A stretch of DNA of 38,726 nt from a virus (IMGVR_UViG_2541047763_000005:1-38726); one strand, 5' to 3'. Counted from the stretch's first letter, positions 4,301 to 35,861 are shown. Notes: a model not told the origin generated them from the sequence alone. Program-made: numbers and translations.

Positions 4301-4611
4301 AACGCATCGCTATTTTGTTAATATTGTTCTTCTCTACAATAGTTTGCGCCAAACAAAAATCAGATAATGGCGATCTTAAAGGCCTGCAAGAACTCATGAT
4401 AACTTCGAAATTTGCTGGCATGTGCGGCACAATCAAACAAATGGCAACATTTCAAGAATCAACAAAAATGCCTGGCGGAGATGAGTTCTTACAGCGTTTT
4501 CTGACCACAGAGCAAGCAAGACTTGGAATGAATCCACAGGAGTTTCTTGAAGCATGCCAGAAGTCAATTTCAGCTTATACCAATTATTACAATCTAACTT
4601 CTGATAAATAA
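4297..4611 (+). CDS. small secreted protein, likely moron, translationally coupled to mnt
   Basis: 104-aa ORF whose ATG overlaps the mnt stop (ATGA). N-terminal signal-peptide-like sequence MKRIAILLILFFSTIVCAKQ. The DNA is visibly AT-rich compared with its flanks. Confidence 0.5.
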   Translation: MKRIAILLILFFSTIVCAKQKSDNGDLKGLQELMITSKFAGMCGTIKQMATFQESTKMPGGDEFLQRFLTTEQARLGMNPQEFLEACQKSISAYTNYYNLTSDK

Positions 4612-4636
4612 TAGAAAGGATTTTATAAATAACTTT

Positions 4637-5122
4637 ATGAAAAAATCACTATTAATTATCCCGCTTCTGCTGGCTGGATGCGCAAAAGTAAGTGACTATC
4701 AAGCAAGTTGCGAACAACGCTATCAAAAGCTTAGCGATATGGCTAATTGCCTTGATGCCAGTGTGAAGAACGACTCACGCATGGCATCAGCACCAACACC
4801 TAAGCTGTATGTCCTTGCTGCAAAGATGCTCGGGCAAGGTGTCGATGAAGGAAAGATAAGTGACGCACAGGCAAGACTTGAGCTTCAGAATCTTTATGTT
4901 CAATTACAAAGCCAAGAACAAGCCCAACAAATAGCACAAAGCCAAGCATTCCAGCAGGCTTTATTGAATTATCAGGCTGTAAACACAATGCAAGCGATCG
5001 AGCAAAAAGCGCGCCAGCCTGTTATAACTCAACCTTACCCAACACGCGTTGACACATATACAAACTGCAATTCAGGATTTGGAAACGCGGTAACATGCAA
5101 CAGTAGCAGTAACATCAGATAA
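4637..5122 (+). CDS. lipoprotein (lipobox LLAGC), likely moron
   Basis: 161-aa ORF; MKKSLLIIPLLLAGC is a canonical lipoprotein signal with lipobox Cys; Gln-rich central region; Cys-containing C-terminus. Same strand as mnt, convergent with the structural operon. Confidence 0.55.
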   Translation: MKKSLLIIPLLLAGCAKVSDYQASCEQRYQKLSDMANCLDASVKNDSRMASAPTPKLYVLAAKMLGQGVDEGKISDAQARLELQNLYVQLQSQEQAQQIAQSQAFQQALLNYQAVNTMQAIEQKARQPVITQPYPTRVDTYTNCNSGFGNAVTCNSSSNIR

Positions 5123-21835: not shown

Positions 21836-21911
21836 TGGTGCTGGTTAACGGACTTGAACCGCTACCCATTCGCTTACAAGGCGACTGCTCTACCATTGGA
21901 GCTAAACCAGC
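21836..21911 (-). tRNA. tRNA, anticodon UGU (Thr) by hand folding
   Basis: 76-nt cloverleaf read from the reverse complement: acceptor GCTGGTT/AACCAGC, D-arm GCTC..GAGC, anticodon loop CTTGTAA, T-arm AGCGG-TTCAAGT-CCGTT, 3' CCA encoded. Confidence 0.6.
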
Positions 21912-21916
21912 ATGTT

Positions 21917-21991
21917 TGGCGGGACAGCGTGGGCTCGAACCACGATAAGAAGGTTAACAGCCTTCCGTAATGACCTTTATACGACTGACCC
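21917..21991 (-). tRNA. tRNA-like gene, anticodon GUU (Asn) by hand folding; non-canonical
   Basis: 75 nt: perfect T-arm CGTGG-TTCGAGC-CCACG, anticodon arm GAAGG-CTGTTAA-CCTTC, CCA encoded, but one acceptor mismatch and a compressed D-arm. May be a degenerate phage tRNA. Confidence 0.45.
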
Positions 21992-29674: not shown

Positions 29675-30391
<717 letters not shown>

Positions 30392-30398
30392 CACGTAA

Positions 30399-30836
30399 AT
30401 GATTAAAGAACGTATTTCTTATATCATTCCGATTGCGATGGATGAAGGCAACCCCGTAACTCCAGTTCTTATCTATGAAATGGATAAAGACTCCCATGAA
30501 GTGGATCTGTCATTTGGCGCTTTTTTTATCGGCCTTAAGGCTACAAAAAAATATTCCATAGGCATTGAGGTTTTCAATGCTCAAGAAATACCGATACCAA
30601 TTGACACAAAACTGTACTCCAACCATAAGTTTTTTACGGTAGCAGAAGCCAACGATGGAGAAACCATCGTATCAACTTCTATGAGAATTAACTTCCCAAG
30701 GGTGAAAATTATCAAGCCTGGGATATTCGAAGTTAGAGCATCACTGGTTAATCCTGAGAAAGGCGAAGTAATTGATGTAAAAAGTTCGTTTTTTGACGTG
30801 AAGATAACAGGATCAGTTCGCGATGAGTTTAGATAA
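30399..30836 (+). CDS. hypothetical soluble protein, first gene of the cI-linked cassette (rexA position)
   Basis: 145-aa ORF starting 7 nt after the cI stop with no strong ribosome-binding site; predicted beta-rich, no hydrophobic helix; AT-rich DNA; not RexA-like. Confidence 0.55.
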   Translation: MIKERISYIIPIAMDEGNPVTPVLIYEMDKDSHEVDLSFGAFFIGLKATKKYSIGIEVFNAQEIPIPIDTKLYSNHKFFTVAEANDGETIVSTSMRINFPRVKIIKPGIFEVRASLVNPEKGEVIDVKSSFFDVKITGSVRDEFR

Positions 30837-31146
30837 CAAGGTTACTCAGCTTCGTCCAAATCAAAACATATCTCGCCCAATTGGACACTATCCAACTGAT
30901 GATGCATACTCACGGCATGGTGGCGGCAATGGCGGAGGTGATGATGTGCTTCAAAGAGTGAAAGAACTCGAAAAAGATGTTCAGCAAATGAAAACCGACC
31001 TGGCTGTCATGCGCTCGAATTATGCAACCAAATCAGACGTAAGCGACGCGAAAACTTCGATAATTCTATGGGTTGTAGGTGCGGTCGTATCCTCACAACT
31101 CATACCAGCAATCCCCAAAATACTTGAAGTGTTTTTCCATAAATAA
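30823..31146 (+). CDS. hypothetical single-pass membrane protein with coiled coil, second gene of the cI-linked cassette (rexB position)
   Basis: 107-aa ORF overlapping the previous gene by 14 nt; Gly-rich N-terminus, heptad segment DDVLQRVKELEKDVQQMKTDLAVMRSNY, C-terminal hydrophobic helix ILWVVGAVVSSQLIPAIPKIL. Confidence 0.55.
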   Translation: MSLDNKVTQLRPNQNISRPIGHYPTDDAYSRHGGGNGGGDDVLQRVKELEKDVQQMKTDLAVMRSNYATKSDVSDAKTSIILWVVGAVVSSQLIPAIPKILEVFFHK

Positions 31147-31147
31147 C

Positions 31148-31176
31148 AACCCGGCCTCAGTGCCGGGTTTTCTTTG
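31148..31176 (+). terminator. rho-independent terminator ending the cI operon
   Basis: ACCCGGC-CTCAGT-GCCGGGT stem-loop followed by TTTCTTTG, 2 nt after the stop of the 107-aa gene. Confidence 0.6.
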
Positions 31177-31327: not shown

Positions 31328-31390
31328 AACCATCTGCGGTGATAAATTATCTCTGGCGGTGTTGACACACATACCACTAGCGGTGATACT
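31328..31390 (+). promoter_or_regulatory. left operator OL1-OL2-OL3 with promoter PL, lambda type
   Basis: OL3 31328-31344, OL2 31348-31364, OL1 31372-31388; -35 TTGACA (31362-31367) and -10 GATACT (31385-31390) with 17-bp spacing; the sequence is near-identical to the lambda PL region as I recall it. Confidence 0.85.
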
Positions 31391-31436
31391 AAACACATCA
31401 GCAGGAAGCTGGAAGCCAAACGGAACAGATTGGCAG

Positions 31437-31470
31437 GCTCTTTAACTTCGATGGGGCGCTGACAAAGCGC
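31437..31470 (+). promoter_or_regulatory. nutL (boxA + boxB), P22 type
   Basis: boxA GCTCTTTAA (31437-31445) and boxB hairpin GCGCT-GACAA-AGCGC (31456-31470), which I recall as the P22 nutL boxB. Confidence 0.6.
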
Positions 31471-31589
31471 AAACAGATACCAAACGAGATGGGTTTGGCG
31501 GTGATGTGAATTGTAGCTGCAACGACAGCAACCAGAAGATCAGCATCTGTCGCATCACCACCAAAGCCATTTCACATGAGGAAAACATC

Positions 31590-31925
31590 ATGACGGTAAT
31601 CGTATACGGGAAATCAACATTCGCAGGAAATGCCAAAACTCGCCGTCATGAGCGGCGCAGAAAGCTGGCTATTGAGCGTGATGCTATCTGTAACATCATT
31701 GATTCTATCTTCGGCACAGACAGTGAGGAACCTGTTCAGGAGGCCCCAAGAAAGCGTTTAAGCCTTTCTGAAAAAGCAATATCACTCGGAAGCCTTCGCT
31801 GCAAGAATGCAGAAGAAGTCGAGCGTAAACAGAACCGTATTTACTACCGCAAGCCACGCAGTGAAATGGGCGTGACTTGTGTTGGTCGCCAGAAAATGAA
31901 ATTAGGCAGCAAACCACTTATTTGA
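31590..31925 (+). CDS. N: antitermination protein N (P22 gene 24-type arginine-rich motif)
   Basis: Start at ATG 31590 with a GAGGA ribosome-binding site; N-terminus MTVIVYGKSTFAGNAKTRRHERRRKLAIERD matches the P22 N RNA-binding peptide; C-terminus ...RIYYRKPRSEMGVTCVGRQKMKLGSKPLI is N-like. Confidence 0.8.
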   Translation: MTVIVYGKSTFAGNAKTRRHERRRKLAIERDAICNIIDSIFGTDSEEPVQEAPRKRLSLSEKAISLGSLRCKNAEEVERKQNRIYYRKPRSEMGVTCVGRQKMKLGSKPLI

Positions 31926-31933
31926 GGTGAGAT

Positions 31934-32020: not shown

Positions 32021-32204
32021 TAAGAATCAATGGTGTGGACAATTCAAGCGATGCAATGGATGCAAGCTGCAATCGGAATGCATGGTTAAGCCTGAAGAAA
32101 TGTTTCCTGTAATGGAGGATGGGAAATATGTCGATAAATGGGCAATACGAACTACGGCAATGATTGCCAGAGAACTTGGTAAACTGAACAACAAGGCTGC
32201 CTGA
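32004..32204 (+). CDS. ral: Ral (restriction alleviation), lambda type
   Basis: 66-aa ORF MTTTIDKNQWCGQFKRCNGCKLQSECMVKPEEMFPVMEDGKYVDKWAIRTTAMIARELGK.NNKAA, matching lambda Ral as I recall it. Confidence 0.8.
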   Translation: MTTTIDKNQWCGQFKRCNGCKLQSECMVKPEEMFPVMEDGKYVDKWAIRTTAMIARELGKLNNKAA

Positions 32205-32227
32205 TGGTGGCCTTTATTTTCTTATTT
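32195..32227 (+). terminator. putative rho-independent terminator after ral
   Basis: GGCTGCC-TGAT-GGTGGCC stem (7 bp, two G-U pairs) followed by TTTATTTTCTTATTT; the ral stop codon lies in the loop. Confidence 0.45.
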
Positions 32228-32240
32228 GAGAGGAATTAAT

Positions 32241-32864
32241 ATGTCATCAATCCGCTTAACTACGAGAATGAAAGAGGAAATCGCTCGTAACGCTTTAATT
32301 AAGTCTGGGGTTTTCACTGAACTTGAAGAAGTAACAAAGTTAAAGAACCAGCTTGCACTTGACGCCAGAGTTATTGCGTTTGGCGGTAAAAAGAAAACTG
32401 AGGAAGTGGATCAGTTATCATCCAAGTTGGTAGCTATAAGTGAAGAACTTGAAAAGATGGGATGTTCATTTTACTCATACGATGTTCGTTCTACTTCAAT
32501 TTATCTGACTGTATCTGGCAGAAGGGTTGGATGGCATTCATATGGGAAAGACGGCAACGGCGAAGATATATTGCTCCCTACTCCGACCAAAGATAAATGC
32601 ATGTTTGACGCAGAACACGAAATAACAGAAAGGTTTGATGAAATCTGCGCATTACAACAAAAACTTGAAGCAAAGAAAAAGGATATCGAATCAAATGTAT
32701 GGGCTGCTTTAAACTCAGTCACAACAGTTAAGCGACTCATTGAAGTTTGGCCTGAAAGCAAAGAATTGCTACCAAAAGAAGCAGATAAAGCAAGTACAGC
32801 ACTTCCTGCTTTACGGGTAGAAGATTTGAATAAGATGATTGGACTTCCTTCCGAGGCCGCATAG
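32241..32864 (+). CDS. hypothetical protein (207 aa) flanked by terminators in the PL operon
   Basis: ATG at 32241 with a GAGAGGA ribosome-binding site; soluble, mixed charge, no recognised motif. Confidence 0.5.
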   Translation: MSSIRLTTRMKEEIARNALIKSGVFTELEEVTKLKNQLALDARVIAFGGKKKTEEVDQLSSKLVAISEELEKMGCSFYSYDVRSTSIYLTVSGRRVGWHSYGKDGNGEDILLPTPTKDKCMFDAEHEITERFDEICALQQKLEAKKKDIESNVWAALNSVTTVKRLIEVWPESKELLPKEADKASTALPALRVEDLNKMIGLPSEAA

Positions 32865-32880
32865 TCGGCCTTTATTTTTG
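32854..32880 (+). terminator. rho-independent terminator
   Basis: AGGCCG-CATAGT-CGGCCT stem-loop followed by TTATTTTTG; the stop codon of the 207-aa gene is in the loop. Confidence 0.5.
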
Positions 32881-32998
32881 GCACTAACAACAGAATAAAC
32901 ACTGCACTGTGTATTCATTCCAACGAGTGAATACACGGAGCAATGTCGCTCGTAACTAAACAGGAGCCGACTTGTTCTGATTATTGGAAATCTTCTTT

Positions 32999-33025
32999 GC
33001 CCTCCAGTGTGAGGGCAATTTTTTT
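32999..33025 (+). terminator. rho-independent terminator-like hairpin upstream of the coiled-coil gene
   Basis: GCCCTC-CAGTGT-GAGGGC followed by AATTTTTTT; sits 12 nt before the ribosome-binding site and ATG at 33038. Confidence 0.5.
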
Positions 33026-33037
33026 GATGGAGGATAT

Positions 33038-34006
33038 ATGAGTGAAGTAACAGATTTAGTTGTTATTGAAAAAGCAAATGCAATGACTGTATTTCAGTCT
33101 GCCGACCAGATTGAAGAAATCCTTCAAAAGGTTGAACGTGAAGTTATGTCCTTTGTGCCTGATATCACAACAGCAAAGGGCAGAAAGGAGATCGCTTCTC
33201 TGGCGTATAAAGTTGCGCAGACGAAAACATATCTCGATGGTCTTGGCAAAGACCTTGTTGCTGAACTGAAGGAAATTCCAAAGCTAATTGATGCTAACCG
33301 CAAGACAGTGCGTGATCGCCTTGATGAACTGAAAGCCAAGGCGCGCCAGCCTCTTACTGATTATGAGGAGGAACAGGCACGGATTAAAGCCGAAGAAGAA
33401 GCTAAGGCAGCAGCTGAAGCTCTCGCAAAGCAAATTGAGTCTGATCATGAAATAGCTATTTTGATGGATCGCGAATTTGACCGCCAAAGAGAAGAGGCAA
33501 GACTCAAAGCGGAGCAGGAAAAGCGAGAGCATGAAGAACGCTTAAAAAGAGAAGCTGAAGAGAAAGCCAGAGCTGAAGCCGAAGCAAAGGCAAAAGCCGA
33601 AATTGAAGCAGCAGCAAGGCGAGAAGCAGAAGCTAAGGCCGCAGCGGAACGTTCAGAGCGTGAACGCATTGAAGCCGAGCAACGAGCACAGCGCGAAGCA
33701 AAAGAGGCAGCAGAACGAGCTGAAAGAGAAAAGCAGGCGGCAATTGAAGCAGAACGCCGAAAAGCACAGGAGGAGGCTGAACGAATCCGGCGCGAAGCTG
33801 AAGCAAAAGAGCAAGCCAGAATAGCAGAAGAAAAAAGAATCAAGGACGAAGAAGAGCGTAGAGCAAAGGATAAAGCTCACCGGAAAGAAGTTAATAACAA
33901 AATACTTGCTGACCTTATCAAGGTTGGCGCATCAGAAGATGTTGCTAAAAATATCATAACAGCCATCGTAAAAGGCGAAGTATTCGCAACAAAAATAACC
34001 TACTAA
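33038..34006 (+). CDS. coiled-coil protein with E/A/K/R-rich low-complexity core
   Basis: About 322 aa from the ATG preceded by GGAGGA; the central 200 residues are continuous EAxxKAxAE-type helical repeats; structured N- and C-terminal segments. Confidence 0.5.
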   Translation: MSEVTDLVVIEKANAMTVFQSADQIEEILQKVEREVMSFVPDITTAKGRKEIASLAYKVAQTKTYLDGLGKDLVAELKEIPKLIDANRKTVRDRLDELKAKARQPLTDYEEEQARIKAEEEAKAAAEALAKQIESDHEIAILMDREFDRQREEARLKAEQEKREHEERLKREAEEKARAEAEAKAKAEIEAAARREAEAKAAAERSERERIEAEQRAQREAKEAAERAEREKQAAIEAERRKAQEEAERIRREAEAKEQARIAEEKRIKDEEERRAKDKAHRKEVNNKILADLIKVGASEDVAKNIITAIVKGEVFATKITY

Positions 34007-34030
34007 TAAAACCAACATAAGGAACCACCC

Positions 34031-34162
34031 ATGATTTACGCAATCGCGGGAGGCGCTCGCATGGGTGCCTTCCAACTAAATGAATCTTTACTTGAACGAA
34101 TCACCCGTAAATTACGTGACGGATGGAAAAGAGTTGAGGTCTTATTATGCGCAATGAAATAA
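34031..34162 (+). CDS. cIII: CIII-like protease inhibitor (43 aa, below the ORF-track cutoff)
   Basis: Hand translation MIYAIAGGARMGAFQLNESLLERITRKLRDGWKRVEVLLCAMK; the core ESLLERITRKLRDGWKR is the conserved lambda CIII helix. Confidence 0.75.
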   Translation: MIYAIAGGARMGAFQLNESLLERITRKLRDGWKRVEVLLCAMK

Positions 34163-34299
34163 CCATCAATCACCAGATGCTTCGTGCAGCACAAAACAAA
34201 GCAGTAATAGCCAGATTTATTGGTGATTCAAAAATGTGGCTTGAAGCAAATAAAGCGATGAAATCAGCTATCAACCTTCCGTGGTATCGCAGGAAATGA
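34147..34299 (+). CDS. small protein in the kil position
   Basis: 50-aa ORF MRNEITINHQMLRAAQNKAVIARFIGDSKMWLEANKAMKSAINLPWYRRK overlapping the cIII 3' end; kil-like by position only. Confidence 0.35.
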   Translation: MRNEITINHQMLRAAQNKAVIARFIGDSKMWLEANKAMKSAINLPWYRRK

Positions 34300-34454
34300 G
34301 TTTTACAGATAACTGGTCAGACGAAGAATTCATTCGTCAGATGAAAGAATTAATCGGTAACGAAGGAGATATTCATGTCACTTGCAACCACAGTGAAGGA
34401 GAGCAAGTTACAGAGACGCATGTACACGCAGAAAGCTCTCTGGTATCGCCATAA
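34296..34454 (+). CDS. small hypothetical protein (52 aa)
   Basis: ATGA overlap with the previous stop; MSFTDNWSDEEFIRQMKELIGNEGDIHVTCNHSEGEQVTETHVHAESSLVSP. Confidence 0.3.
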   Translation: MSFTDNWSDEEFIRQMKELIGNEGDIHVTCNHSEGEQVTETHVHAESSLVSP

Positions 34455-34555: not shown

Positions 34556-35161
34556 ATGAGCAAAGAATTTTACGCAAGACTGGCAGCTATTCAGGAGAAT
34601 CTGAACGCGCCAAAGAATCAGTACAACTCATTCGGCAAATATAAATACAGAAGCTGCGAAGATATTCTTGAAGGCGTTAAGCCGTTACTGAATGGTCTGT
34701 TTTTATCAATCAGCGATGAAGTTGTGTTGATTGGTGATCGGTATTACGTGAAAGCAACGGCAACTATTACTGATGGCGAAAACAGTCATACAGCAACCGC
34801 TCTTGCACGAGAGGAAGAAAGCAAGAAAGGAATGGATTCTGCACAAGTTACGGGAGCTACAAGCTCTTATGCACGCAAGTATTGCCTCAATGGTTTGTTC
34901 GGCATTGATGATGCGAAAGATGCAGATACCGACGAGCATAAACATCAGCAGAACGCAGCAGCAAAGCAATCAAAGCCATCACCTACACCTGAACAGGTTT
35001 TAAAGGCATTCACTGACGCAGCAATGCAGAAAAACACCGTGGAAGAGCTTAAACAGGCGTTCGCCAAAGCGTGGAAGATGCTCGAAGGCACACCGGAGCA
35101 GCACAAAGCGCAGGACGTTTACAACATCAGACGAGACGAATTAGAAGGAGCGGCTGCTTAA
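34556..35161 (+). CDS. erf: Erf-family single-strand annealing recombinase
   Basis: 201 aa from the ATG at 34556; motifs KYKYRSCEDIL and GATSSYARKYCLNGLFGIDD are characteristic of the Erf family; same place as erf in P22. Confidence 0.8.
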   Translation: MSKEFYARLAAIQENLNAPKNQYNSFGKYKYRSCEDILEGVKPLLNGLFLSISDEVVLIGDRYYVKATATITDGENSHTATALAREEESKKGMDSAQVTGATSSYARKYCLNGLFGIDDAKDADTDEHKHQQNAAAKQSKPSPTPEQVLKAFTDAAMQKNTVEELKQAFAKAWKMLEGTPEQHKAQDVYNIRRDELEGAAA

Positions 35162-35544
35162 TGGCACATTCGATTACTGTAAGACTAAACAAACCCGCAA
35201 GAGAGTTTCAGGCCGGGGAAAATATCGGATTCAACATCCGTGCTGGCGTTCAGTATTACGATCGCCAGACAAAAAAGAAAGAATGGACAAACTACAGCGC
35301 CGTTGTATTTGCCAAGCCGGGAGCGCAAGCGGATTACTACCGTAGCGTTCTTGTTGAAGGTGGCATTGTGGAAATTACCGGAGAAAACATCAGGGTTGAT
35401 GTTTATCAGGGGCAAAATGGTCTATCAATCACTCTTGAATTACTGAATGCAAAGATTGGATTTGCAGCTTCAGGAAATGACCCGCAGCAGCAAAGTAGTA
35501 ACCAGCAGAACACTCCTGTATACGACGATTCCATCCCATTCTGA
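35161..35544 (+). CDS. small SSB-like protein with acidic C-terminal tail
   Basis: 127 aa; the ATG overlaps the erf stop (TAATG); C-terminal ...QQNTPVYDDSIPF resembles the SSB amphipathic tail (DDDIPF); Gln-rich linker. Confidence 0.55.
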   Translation: MAHSITVRLNKPAREFQAGENIGFNIRAGVQYYDRQTKKKEWTNYSAVVFAKPGAQADYYRSVLVEGGIVEITGENIRVDVYQGQNGLSITLELLNAKIGFAASGNDPQQQSSNQQNTPVYDDSIPF

Positions 35545-35567: not shown

Positions 35568-35861
35568 ATGCCAGCGCCTCTGTATGGTGCGGATGACCCG
35601 CGCCGCTGTTCCGGCAATTCCATATCGGAGGTGCTGGATAAATTCAGAAAAAACCACGATCGAATAATGTCTCTACCGCAGGAAACGAAAGAGGAAAAGG
35701 AATTTCGCCATTGTATATGGCTTGCAGAGAAAGAAGAACGCGAGCGAATTTACCAGGCATCAATCCGACCATTCCGCAAAGCCACATATACCCACTTCCC
35801 TGAAATTGACCCGCGCCTGCGTAATTACCGCTCACGCTATGGCGCTATCAGTAATGACTGA
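35568..35861 (+). CDS. hypothetical protein (97 aa)
   Basis: ATG with an AAGGA ribosome-binding site; basic protein; an Abc2-like anti-RecBCD role is possible from position after erf, but this is speculative. Confidence 0.4.

Follow-up and report, generated by a model that had tools for sequence, protein, structure and literature searches.

In phage lambda, the leftward early (PL) operon contains a non-coding segment between ral and ea10 (≈33,925–34,096) that includes tL2a, an intrinsic terminator that is read through by N-modified RNA polymerase. In the record of phage Sf6 (AF547987), the tL2a hairpin carries the annotation “terminator; homology to phage lambda; tL2A” and the spacer carries that of “bsq4; boundary sequence”; in the record of mEp234, both hairpins are annotated as rho-independent terminators. 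In phi80 (Lula), the PL operon includes agt (PHI80_40), which encodes a protein of 322 amino acids (aa) described by the authors of the record as “anti-toxin for Gam; Mog (modifier of Gam)”; gamL is described in the same record as “host RecBCD/SbcCD enzymes inhibitor; toxic without Mog”. Here, we describe the equivalent region of IMGVR_UViG_2541047763_000005:1-38726, a viral DNA of 38,726 nt (the window), in which genes for proteins of 207 and 322 aa lie between ral and cIII, among three terminator-like hairpins. The + strand corresponds to the direction of the PL operon.

The features of the locus are genuine but for the most part ordinary: each gene has a named family, and conserved elements of the lambda type account for the hairpins and for the inverted repeat between the genes. 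Read along the + strand, the order is PL, nutL, N, orf28, ral, hairpin A, the 207-aa gene, hairpin B, a spacer, tL2a and the 322-aa gene, followed by cIII, kil, arf (or an arf-like open reading frame, ORF), erf, ssb and abc2 (Table 1). The two genes are where an earlier note on this DNA had placed them, both on the + strand, but its statement that neither protein could be named did not hold: the 207-aa protein falls in the Pfam family Nmad5 (nucleotide modification associated domain 5), and phi80 Agt/Mog and the product of Sf6 gene 33 are homologs of the 322-aa protein.

Conserved spacer and cassette junctions

The 173-bp spacer between the two genes is ≈97% identical to the lambda ral–ea10 intergenic region, tL2a included, and can be aligned with it base for base. 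The alignment spans the T-run and “GGCA” that follow the ral hairpin, a strong central hairpin, and the hairpin and T-run before ea10, and the segment occupies the same place in both PL operons, downstream of ral. In lambda, however, ral abuts the spacer and the segment is followed by ea10, whereas in the window the Nmad5 cassette lies in between, duplicating the hairpin/T-run junction, and the segment leads into the agt-like gene. A 158-bp core of the spacer recurs at 90–99% identity in 329 phage records, including lambda, HK022, H-19B, Stx1 and Stx2 phages, SfI and Salmonella phages. As a whole, the spacer has an RNA folding z of −5.85.

We compared the cassettes of the window with those of lambda, Sf6, mEp234, APC_JM3.2 and 80 IMG/VR loci that share the 322-aa gene. 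The 9-bp inverted repeat reported in the earlier note is real, and forms the core of the larger stem of the strong hairpin (folding free energy, dG, −22.8 kcal/mol; z −7.6), as well folded as none of 200 shuffled sequences. This hairpin is nearly invariant in the 84 loci and has a lambda counterpart at ≈34007–34046. A T-run on the + strand and an Rfam match are both lacking; the hairpin could serve in RNA processing, RNA stability or recombination. The tL2a homolog (stem-loop 32997–33018; 8 pairs, then T7; dG −13.2 kcal/mol, z −2.7) differs from lambda 33925–33952 by one base at the stem and by a T-run of T7 vs. T6. Its stem, GCCCTC/GAGGGC, is constant across the 84 loci and its loop is variable (CAGTGT, CGATGT, CAATGT, TAATGT and others), which is the pattern that structural constraint would be expected to produce. 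A literature search on tL2a returned unrelated papers only. Since the spacer is nearly identical to that of lambda and conserved in 329 records, the hairpin that precedes the 322-aa gene is a known lambda feature, as is the inverted repeat, and neither is special to this phage.

An independent scan recovered all three hairpin/T-run sites listed in the earlier note. Apart from tL2a, these are hairpin A (stem-loop 32193–32214; 9 pairs, then TTTATTTT; dG −14.6 kcal/mol, z −3.2) and hairpin B (stem-loop 32853–32872; 7 pairs, then TTTATTTTT; dG −11.0 kcal/mol, z −1.5). The whole window contains 11 terminator-like sites vs. 7.3 ± 2.2 expected, and this count alone is not significant. The three hairpins are nevertheless more than chance, because they are placed exactly at the ends and starts of genes and are conserved in hundreds of phages.

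The slot between N and the spacer was found to hold interchangeable cassettes, each closed by a hairpin of one of two related types, after which comes TTTATTTTTGGCATAAACA. The type A hairpin (GGCTGCC-TGAT-GGTGGCC) closes ral in 13 loci and an unrelated 83-aa gene in nine. The type B hairpin (GGCCG-CATAGT-CGGCC) closes Nmad5 in 14 loci, a hydrophobic protein like Sf6 gp34 in 10, a family of 156 aa in nine, one of 107 aa in seven, and also three singleton genes, as counted over 83 related loci and the window. Together, the two hairpins follow at least seven unrelated cassette genes, and the cassette stop codon, often with the last 2–3 codons (…K/E-A-A-stop), lies inside the hairpin. The swapping of cassettes across the compared loci bears out the earlier assignment of this region as a variable accessory slot of the PL operon, but the hairpins that bracket the 207-aa gene are not specific to it, being 3′ junction elements that many cassettes share.

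A close described relative is Sf6, whose genes 35 (ral), 34 and 33 are arranged in the same way and whose DNA is ≈98% identical except in the variable cassette; the spacer and terminator are the same, and the product of gene 33 equals the 322-aa protein, with 100% identity across the first 120 residues. In Sf6, however, the slot held by Nmad5 in the window is filled by gene 34, which encodes an unrelated hydrophobic protein of 140 aa. A 10-bp direct repeat, CTTATTTGAG, is present exactly twice in the window, and its copies flank a 304-bp unit consisting of orf28, ral and hairpin A. In two of the related loci (L072 and L064), N is joined directly to Nmad5 through a single copy, CTTATTTGAG-AGGAATTAATATG. 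The Nmad5 gene occurs in 13 of the 84 loci, in several of them straight after N. The same short non-coding junction sequences are thus found beside unrelated modules in many phages, as the term “boundary sequence” (bsq) implies. The comparison shows the hairpins to be short conserved sequences at which cassettes have been exchanged, and Nmad5 is bracketed by hairpins because cassettes are shuffled at such junctions.

The hairpins, with their GC stems and T-runs, most likely are intrinsic terminators, as the earlier note had supposed. The same note had called the 207-aa gene terminator-insulated, which would suggest an autonomous unit. This view fits poorly with the promoter scan, in which no sigma-70-like site was found on the + strand between PL (31390) and 34302, and thus no promoter belonging to either the Nmad5 gene or the agt-like gene; nor does it fit with the gap between the T-run of hairpin A and the Nmad5 ATG, which is 14 nt and holds the ribosome-binding site. 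With PL, nutL and N upstream and no promoter of its own, the Nmad5 gene should therefore need N antitermination for its expression. A strict N dependence of the downstream genes is suggested by homology with lambda.

Our preferred reading, which we regard as probable, is that the region is an ordinary N-dependent delayed-early stretch of the PL operon of a P22/Sf6-like lambdoid phage with interchangeable cassettes. Each cassette would consist of a ribosome-binding site, a gene, and a GC hairpin with a T-run. The hairpins would serve as intrinsic terminators that are passed by N-modified RNA polymerase, and with three successive terminators within 830 bp, Nmad5, the Agt-like protein, cIII, Kil and the recombination genes would be expressed only after N had accumulated. 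The second role of the hairpins, shown by the comparison of loci, is that of exchange points for cassettes.

The Nmad5-family and Agt/Mog-like proteins

By its match to Pfam PF18757 (242.2 bits vs. a cut-off of 27), in which residues 4–203 cover profile positions 1–206 of 206, the sequence of the 207-aa protein places it with certainty in the Nmad5 family. We found 68 homologs in Enterobacterales prophages, all with PF18757, and tblastn extended the family to 382 phage records. The AlphaFold2 model (predicted local distance difference test, pLDDT, 85.7) is a helical bundle with a small β-hairpin. This model matched no enzyme fold, the sequence has no relative of solved structure, and there was no NCBIfam or PADLOC match. 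As modeled, Nmad5 is thus a helical protein of non-enzymatic appearance.

The genomic contexts of Nmad5 differ. The first gene called downstream of the cI-like repressor in prophages of Klebsiella, Providencia and Serratia is the Nmad5 homolog, and across several genera the family holds the first or second place in the early leftward operon. The Klebsiella prophages L086–L088 (≈4580–5000) have Nmad5 as the first ORF of the leftward early operon, after an ORF-less leader of ≈400 nt, and no N gene is present in them. The family name derives from neighborhoods such as the thymidine-hypermodification cassette of M6/SN1-type Pseudomonas phages, where the Nmad5 gene adjoins aGPT-Pplase (PMC9476957). 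No such neighborhood of DNA-modification enzymes is seen in the window, where the neighbors are N, orf28, ral, agt-like, cIII, kil and erf, and no DNA-base-modification enzymes were found around the Klebsiella, Providencia and Serratia homologs.

The Dhillonvirus and M6-type proteins share with the window protein the C-terminal half only (≈residues 104–207), which contains the conserved motif TxK[KR]LIxxWPE...LPAL.V..LN..IG.P; their genes lie in a head-gene island or in the hypermodification cassette, rather than in a PL operon. In the Dhillonvirus Escherichia phage SECphi18 (L192, 2030–2794), the Nmad5 gene (254 aa) stands as an island on the opposite strand, flanked by the head-morphogenesis and scaffold genes. 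In Dhillonvirus, a single missense mutation in nmad5 (K216E or K296E) allows escape from the Tmn defence, an effect not seen when the gene is deleted, and nmad5 was toxic to clone (PMC11846954). This escape is the only experimental link that we found for the Nmad5 family. In the alignment, K216 of SECphi18 Nmad5 corresponds to R165 in the window protein, a position within the nearly invariant TxK[KR]LIxxWPE; this would be the residue changed in the K216E escape phage, if the numbering is assumed to be the same. With low confidence, we propose that Nmad5 would not modify DNA but, early in infection, would bind a target (DNA or a host component) to counter defences or take over the host. A host-takeover or counter-defence role, as suggested in the earlier note, is plausible.

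The 322-aa protein aligns with phi80 Agt over the full length of both 322-aa sequences (BLASTP, 50% identity, E = 9e-65) and matches phrog_1376 at 1e-110. On these alignments, it is a full-length member of the Agt/Mog family, which includes Sf6 gp33 and D3 Orf53, and its relationship to phi80 Agt/Mog is at the level of orthologs. It has no match in Pfam (even at E = 10), NCBIfam, PADLOC or among sequences in the Protein Data Bank (PDB). The domain plan, shared with phi80 Agt, is that of a conserved N-domain (residues 1–115) and a C-domain (278–322) with an E/A/R/K coiled coil between them. The earlier note had described ≈200 residues of uninterrupted E/A/K/R helix. The composition stood, 80% of the 162 residues from 116 to 277 being E, A, R or K, but the continuity did not: the AlphaFold2 model (pLDDT 84.9) has helices at 46–172 and 190–295, a low-confidence break at 175–188 and a small C-terminal domain. 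In the model, the helix spans ≈250 residues and may fold back on itself.

Ten residues (T45, G48, R49, K63, G70, K71, K78, D85, R88 and E110) are invariant in 40 diverse Agt-like members. Natural variants range from 245 to 333 aa, with in-frame deletions of 13, 16, 22, 32, 47, 53 and 77 residues, among which no heptad or hendecad periodicity was detected. All of the deletions fall within residues 121–237, and the coiled coil thus acts as a connector of the end domains that tolerates changes in length. The corresponding coding region (33340–33900) is rich in short imperfect direct repeats of the GAAGCnnAAGCnAAGGC type, which probably gave rise to the length variants. A kinship between the 322-aa and 207-aa proteins was rejected (hhalign probability 0.4%). 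A remote link of the Agt N-domain to DUF1351 of Gram-positive phages was also considered; hmmscan of the 40 members at E ≤ 1 gave no match, and no DUF1351 gene was found for comparison in staphylococcal phage 80alpha.

The agt-like gene occupies the slot of lambda ea10 and P22 gene 17 (DUF2528), as the first gene after tL2a and before cIII. Ea10, in contrast, is a protein of 122 aa with no coiled coil and no sequence relationship to the Agt-like protein, and phage APC_JM3.2 has a DUF2528 gene and an agt-like gene in series. In phi80, as in the window, agt lies in the PL operon upstream of the recombination genes, but in phi80 these are gamL-recT-exo, immediately downstream, whereas the window has cIII-kil-arf-erf-ssb-abc2 and no gamL.

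Searches with the N-terminal 120 residues gave 4978 clusters at 50% identity with E ≤ 1e-3, of which 3482 had E ≤ 1e-10, in phages of Escherichia, Pseudomonas, Vibrio, Klebsiella, Erwinia, Acinetobacter and others. In the window, the agt-like gene is upstream of the recombination module; in D3, JBD44, a Vibrio phage and phi80, it directly adjoins the recombination genes. In Pseudomonas phages D3 and JBD44, erf follows the agt-like gene after 9 nt, and is followed by an exonuclease gene; the Vibrio phage has a RecE-like exonuclease and an OB-fold protein next. Two metagenomic members adjoin PD-(D/E)XK/DUF3799 and AAA_24 genes. For a wider census, we took 32 loci with N-domains at least 15% different; a Pfam scan of the products of the two sizeable genes that come next downstream gave 15 YqaJ exonucleases, nine ERF, five RecT and one each of AAA_24, DUF3799 and SSB. 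A small query panel was applied to the downstream 4 kb of the IMG/VR loci L005–L084. Among 68 near-identical E. coli loci, abc2 was found in 63, lambda gam in one and gamL in none; the panel recognized Erf in 33 loci and RecT in five.

Association with these genes leads us to infer that the Agt-like protein is an accessory factor of the recombination/anti-RecBCD module, with a role broader than that of a GamL antitoxin. In the window, it would act together with Abc2 and Erf; the phi80 annotation has it neutralizing GamL toxicity. More tentatively, and with rather less than even confidence, we suggest that Agt-like proteins are an unrecognized, widely conserved accessory part of phage recombination modules across the Gammaproteobacteria, in which the conserved end domains, held by the coiled coil, would dock onto or buffer the nuclease hijacker or annealing system of the given phage (Abc2, GamL, Erf, RecT or exonuclease). 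The Agt-like protein is not mentioned in a 2025 survey of lambdoid recombination modules, and the link of this large family to recombination genes may be new.

Alternative explanations

If the hairpins were recombination boundary sequences or 3′ mRNA-stabilizing structures and not terminators, expression of the region could be independent of N. Their distribution at cassette junctions, the weakness of hairpin B and the label of boundary sequence that the Sf6 authors gave to the adjoining spacer would all suit this explanation, but we consider it unlikely, since all three hairpins are canonical GC stems followed by T-runs, the third is a sequence homolog of lambda tL2a, and a complete N/nutL system is kept upstream. 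As for the 207-aa gene itself, a part in the chemical modification of phage DNA, protecting the genome from restriction, is implied by the Pfam family name, by the place of the M6/SN1-like gene beside aGPT-Pplase in the thymidine-hypermodification cassette (PMC9476957) and by the adjoining anti-restriction gene, ral. Such a part is quite unlikely for the window protein, however: the surrounding PL operon contains no hydroxymethylase, kinase, aGPT-Pplase or radical-SAM partner, the confident predicted model resembles no enzyme, and the homology to the M6-type and Dhillonvirus proteins is limited to the C-terminal half. We also considered that the gene might be an autonomous moron, a unit that brings both a promoter and a terminator and is expressed in the prophage without need of PL, for instance in defence or exclusion. 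Like phage morons, it is a single accessory gene of sporadic distribution with a terminator-like hairpin (B, 32853–32882) at its 3′ end; hairpins bracket it on both sides, it is mobile as a cassette (13 of 84 related loci), and the Dhillonvirus homolog sits as an opposite-strand island among head genes. Unlike a moron, it has no sigma-70-like site upstream, with only 14 nt between the T-run and the ATG, and it lies inside an operon in the same orientation; moreover, other genera have it as the first PL-operon gene directly after the repressor/operator region, and PADLOC found no match. This makes an autonomous moron very improbable.

The annotation of phi80 Agt/Mog, together with the 50% full-length identity, would literally make the 322-aa protein a dedicated antitoxin for a Gam-type RecBCD inhibitor. 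We find this very doubtful, given that gamL is absent from the window and from the 68 near-identical loci, with lambda gam in a single one of these, and that the D3, JBD44 and Vibrio homologs adjoin erf or exonuclease genes with no annotated Gam. The source name, “cell envelope biogenesis protein TolA”, as in most database records, would make it a TolA-like envelope protein, and the E/A/K-rich helix does resemble TolA domain II in composition. However, neither the N-part, the C-part nor the whole protein matches Pfam TolA or any other family at E ≤ 10, the N-domain, which reads MSEVTDLVVIEKANAMTVFQSADQ, has no hydrophobic N-terminal anchor (grand average of hydropathy, GRAVY, −0.47), none of the 40 diverse family members matches a TolA family, and the genomic context is that of phage recombination genes. 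With no TolA domain and no membrane anchor, a TolA identity was rejected and deserves practically no credence.

Several observations weigh against the reading that we prefer, of an N-dependent stretch with a counter-defence factor and a recombination accessory. Hairpin B is weak by itself, and experimental backing exists for tL2a only, in lambda and not in this phage. The function proposed for Nmad5 is weakly grounded, and the family is found in M6/SN1-type phages within a thymidine-hypermodification cassette. The function of phi80 Agt/Mog rests on GenBank notes, and because no gamL is present in the window or in the near-identical loci, the phi80 mechanism cannot transfer literally. In addition, cIII, kil and arf separate the agt-like gene from erf in the window, about half of the 32 diverse loci have no recognizable recombination gene among the next two genes, and one Agt-like context (P0333) has no recombination genes nearby.

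Early region and significance of the locus

The features of the region are listed in Table 1. The neighbors named in the earlier note, ral, cIII, kil and erf, were confirmed by Pfam. A lambda-type cI gene is located at 29678–30391. The regulatory region (31330–31925) is a hybrid: its cI, oL and PL elements are lambda-like, whereas N is of the P22 type and boxB matches that of P22 exactly.

Table 1. Positions of the features of the PL operon and its junction elements in the window.
Feature	Position	Strand	Basis or remark
PL promoter (TTGACA, 17 nt spacer, GATACT) in lambda-type oL operators	31362–31390	+	Promoter scan, 10/12 matches
boxA-like GCTCTTTAAC	≈31439	+	Directly upstream of boxB
nutL boxB, P22 type, GCGCTGACAAAGCGC	31456–31470	+	Exact match, only one in window
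N antiterminator, 111 aa, P22-type arginine-rich motif GNAKTRRHERRRKLAIERD	31590–31925	+	Pfam N_peptide 4e-26; phrog_271
10-bp direct repeat CTTATTTGAG, left copy	31917–31926	+	Overlaps N stop codon
lambda orf28 homolog, 28 aa	31934–32020	+	Near-identity to lambda 34271–34357
ral, restriction alleviation, 66 aa	32004–32204	+	Pfam Ral 2e-48, full length
Hairpin A, GGCTGCC-TGAT-GGTGGCC + T-run, ral stop codon in loop	32193–32224	+	Hairpin scan, RNA folding
10-bp direct repeat CTTATTTGAG, right copy	32221–32230	+	Directly before Nmad5 ribosome-binding site
Nmad5-family gene, 207 aa	32241–32864	+	Pfam PF18757 7.2e-72; phrog_1965
Hairpin B, GAGGCCG-CATAGT-CGGCCTT + TTTATTTTT, Nmad5 stop codon in loop	32853–32882	+	Hairpin scan, RNA folding
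Conserved non-coding spacer, 173 bp	32865–33037	+	Alignment with lambda, Sf6, mEp234; overlaps Sf6 bsq4
Strong hairpin, 14-bp stem + 3 pairs, holds 9-bp inverted repeat GTGTATTCA/TGAATACAC	32903–32942	+	RNA folding
tL2a homolog, TTGCCCTC-CAGTGT-GAGGGCAA + T7	32997–33025	+	Near-identity to lambda 33925–33952; Sf6 annotation
Agt/Mog-like coiled-coil protein, 322 aa; = Sf6 gene 33; misannotated “TolA”	33038–34006	+	BLASTP to phi80 agt; phrog_1376
cIII	34031–34162	+	Pfam Lambda_CIII 4e-15
kil	34147–34299	+	Pfam Lambda_Kil 1.7e-20
erf, ssDNA annealing protein	34556–35161	+	Pfam ERF 2e-44
Phage SSB	35161–35544	+	phrog_44 4.8e-26
abc2, P22-type anti-RecBCD	35568–35861	+	phrog_656 1.4e-53, full length

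Two further ORFs, encoding proteins of 145 aa (phrog_5893) and 107 aa, lie between cI and PL (30399–31169), in the slot that rexA and rexB occupy in lambda. The 107-aa product has a hydrophobic C-terminal segment, and the pair is closed by a bidirectional hairpin at 31148–31169. Neither ORF matched Pfam, NCBIfam or PADLOC; the two are candidates for a prophage-expressed exclusion or defence pair. Elsewhere in the window, adjacent genes for tRNA-Thr (anticodon tgt) and tRNA-Asn (anticodon gtt) are found on the − strand (21836–21991). These were the only matches in an Rfam scan of the window, the PL-operon region giving none.

The genes and hairpins of the locus are common, with near-identical copies in hundreds of lambdoid, Stx-converting and P22-like phages. 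The occurrence of Nmad5 as a stand-alone early gene, with no enzyme-like predicted fold, supports a re-examination of the family as a binding or counter-defence factor, because its only experimental link is to the Tmn defence. For the 322-aa protein, the label of “TolA” or “cell envelope biogenesis” is a compositional artefact that should be replaced by “Agt/Mog-like”. What remains of most interest is this Agt/Mog-like family, which is large, mislabeled, tied to recombination modules and experimentally almost untouched. Its link to these modules, which in E. coli phages include abc2, provides a lead on how phages tolerate their own RecBCD-modifying proteins.

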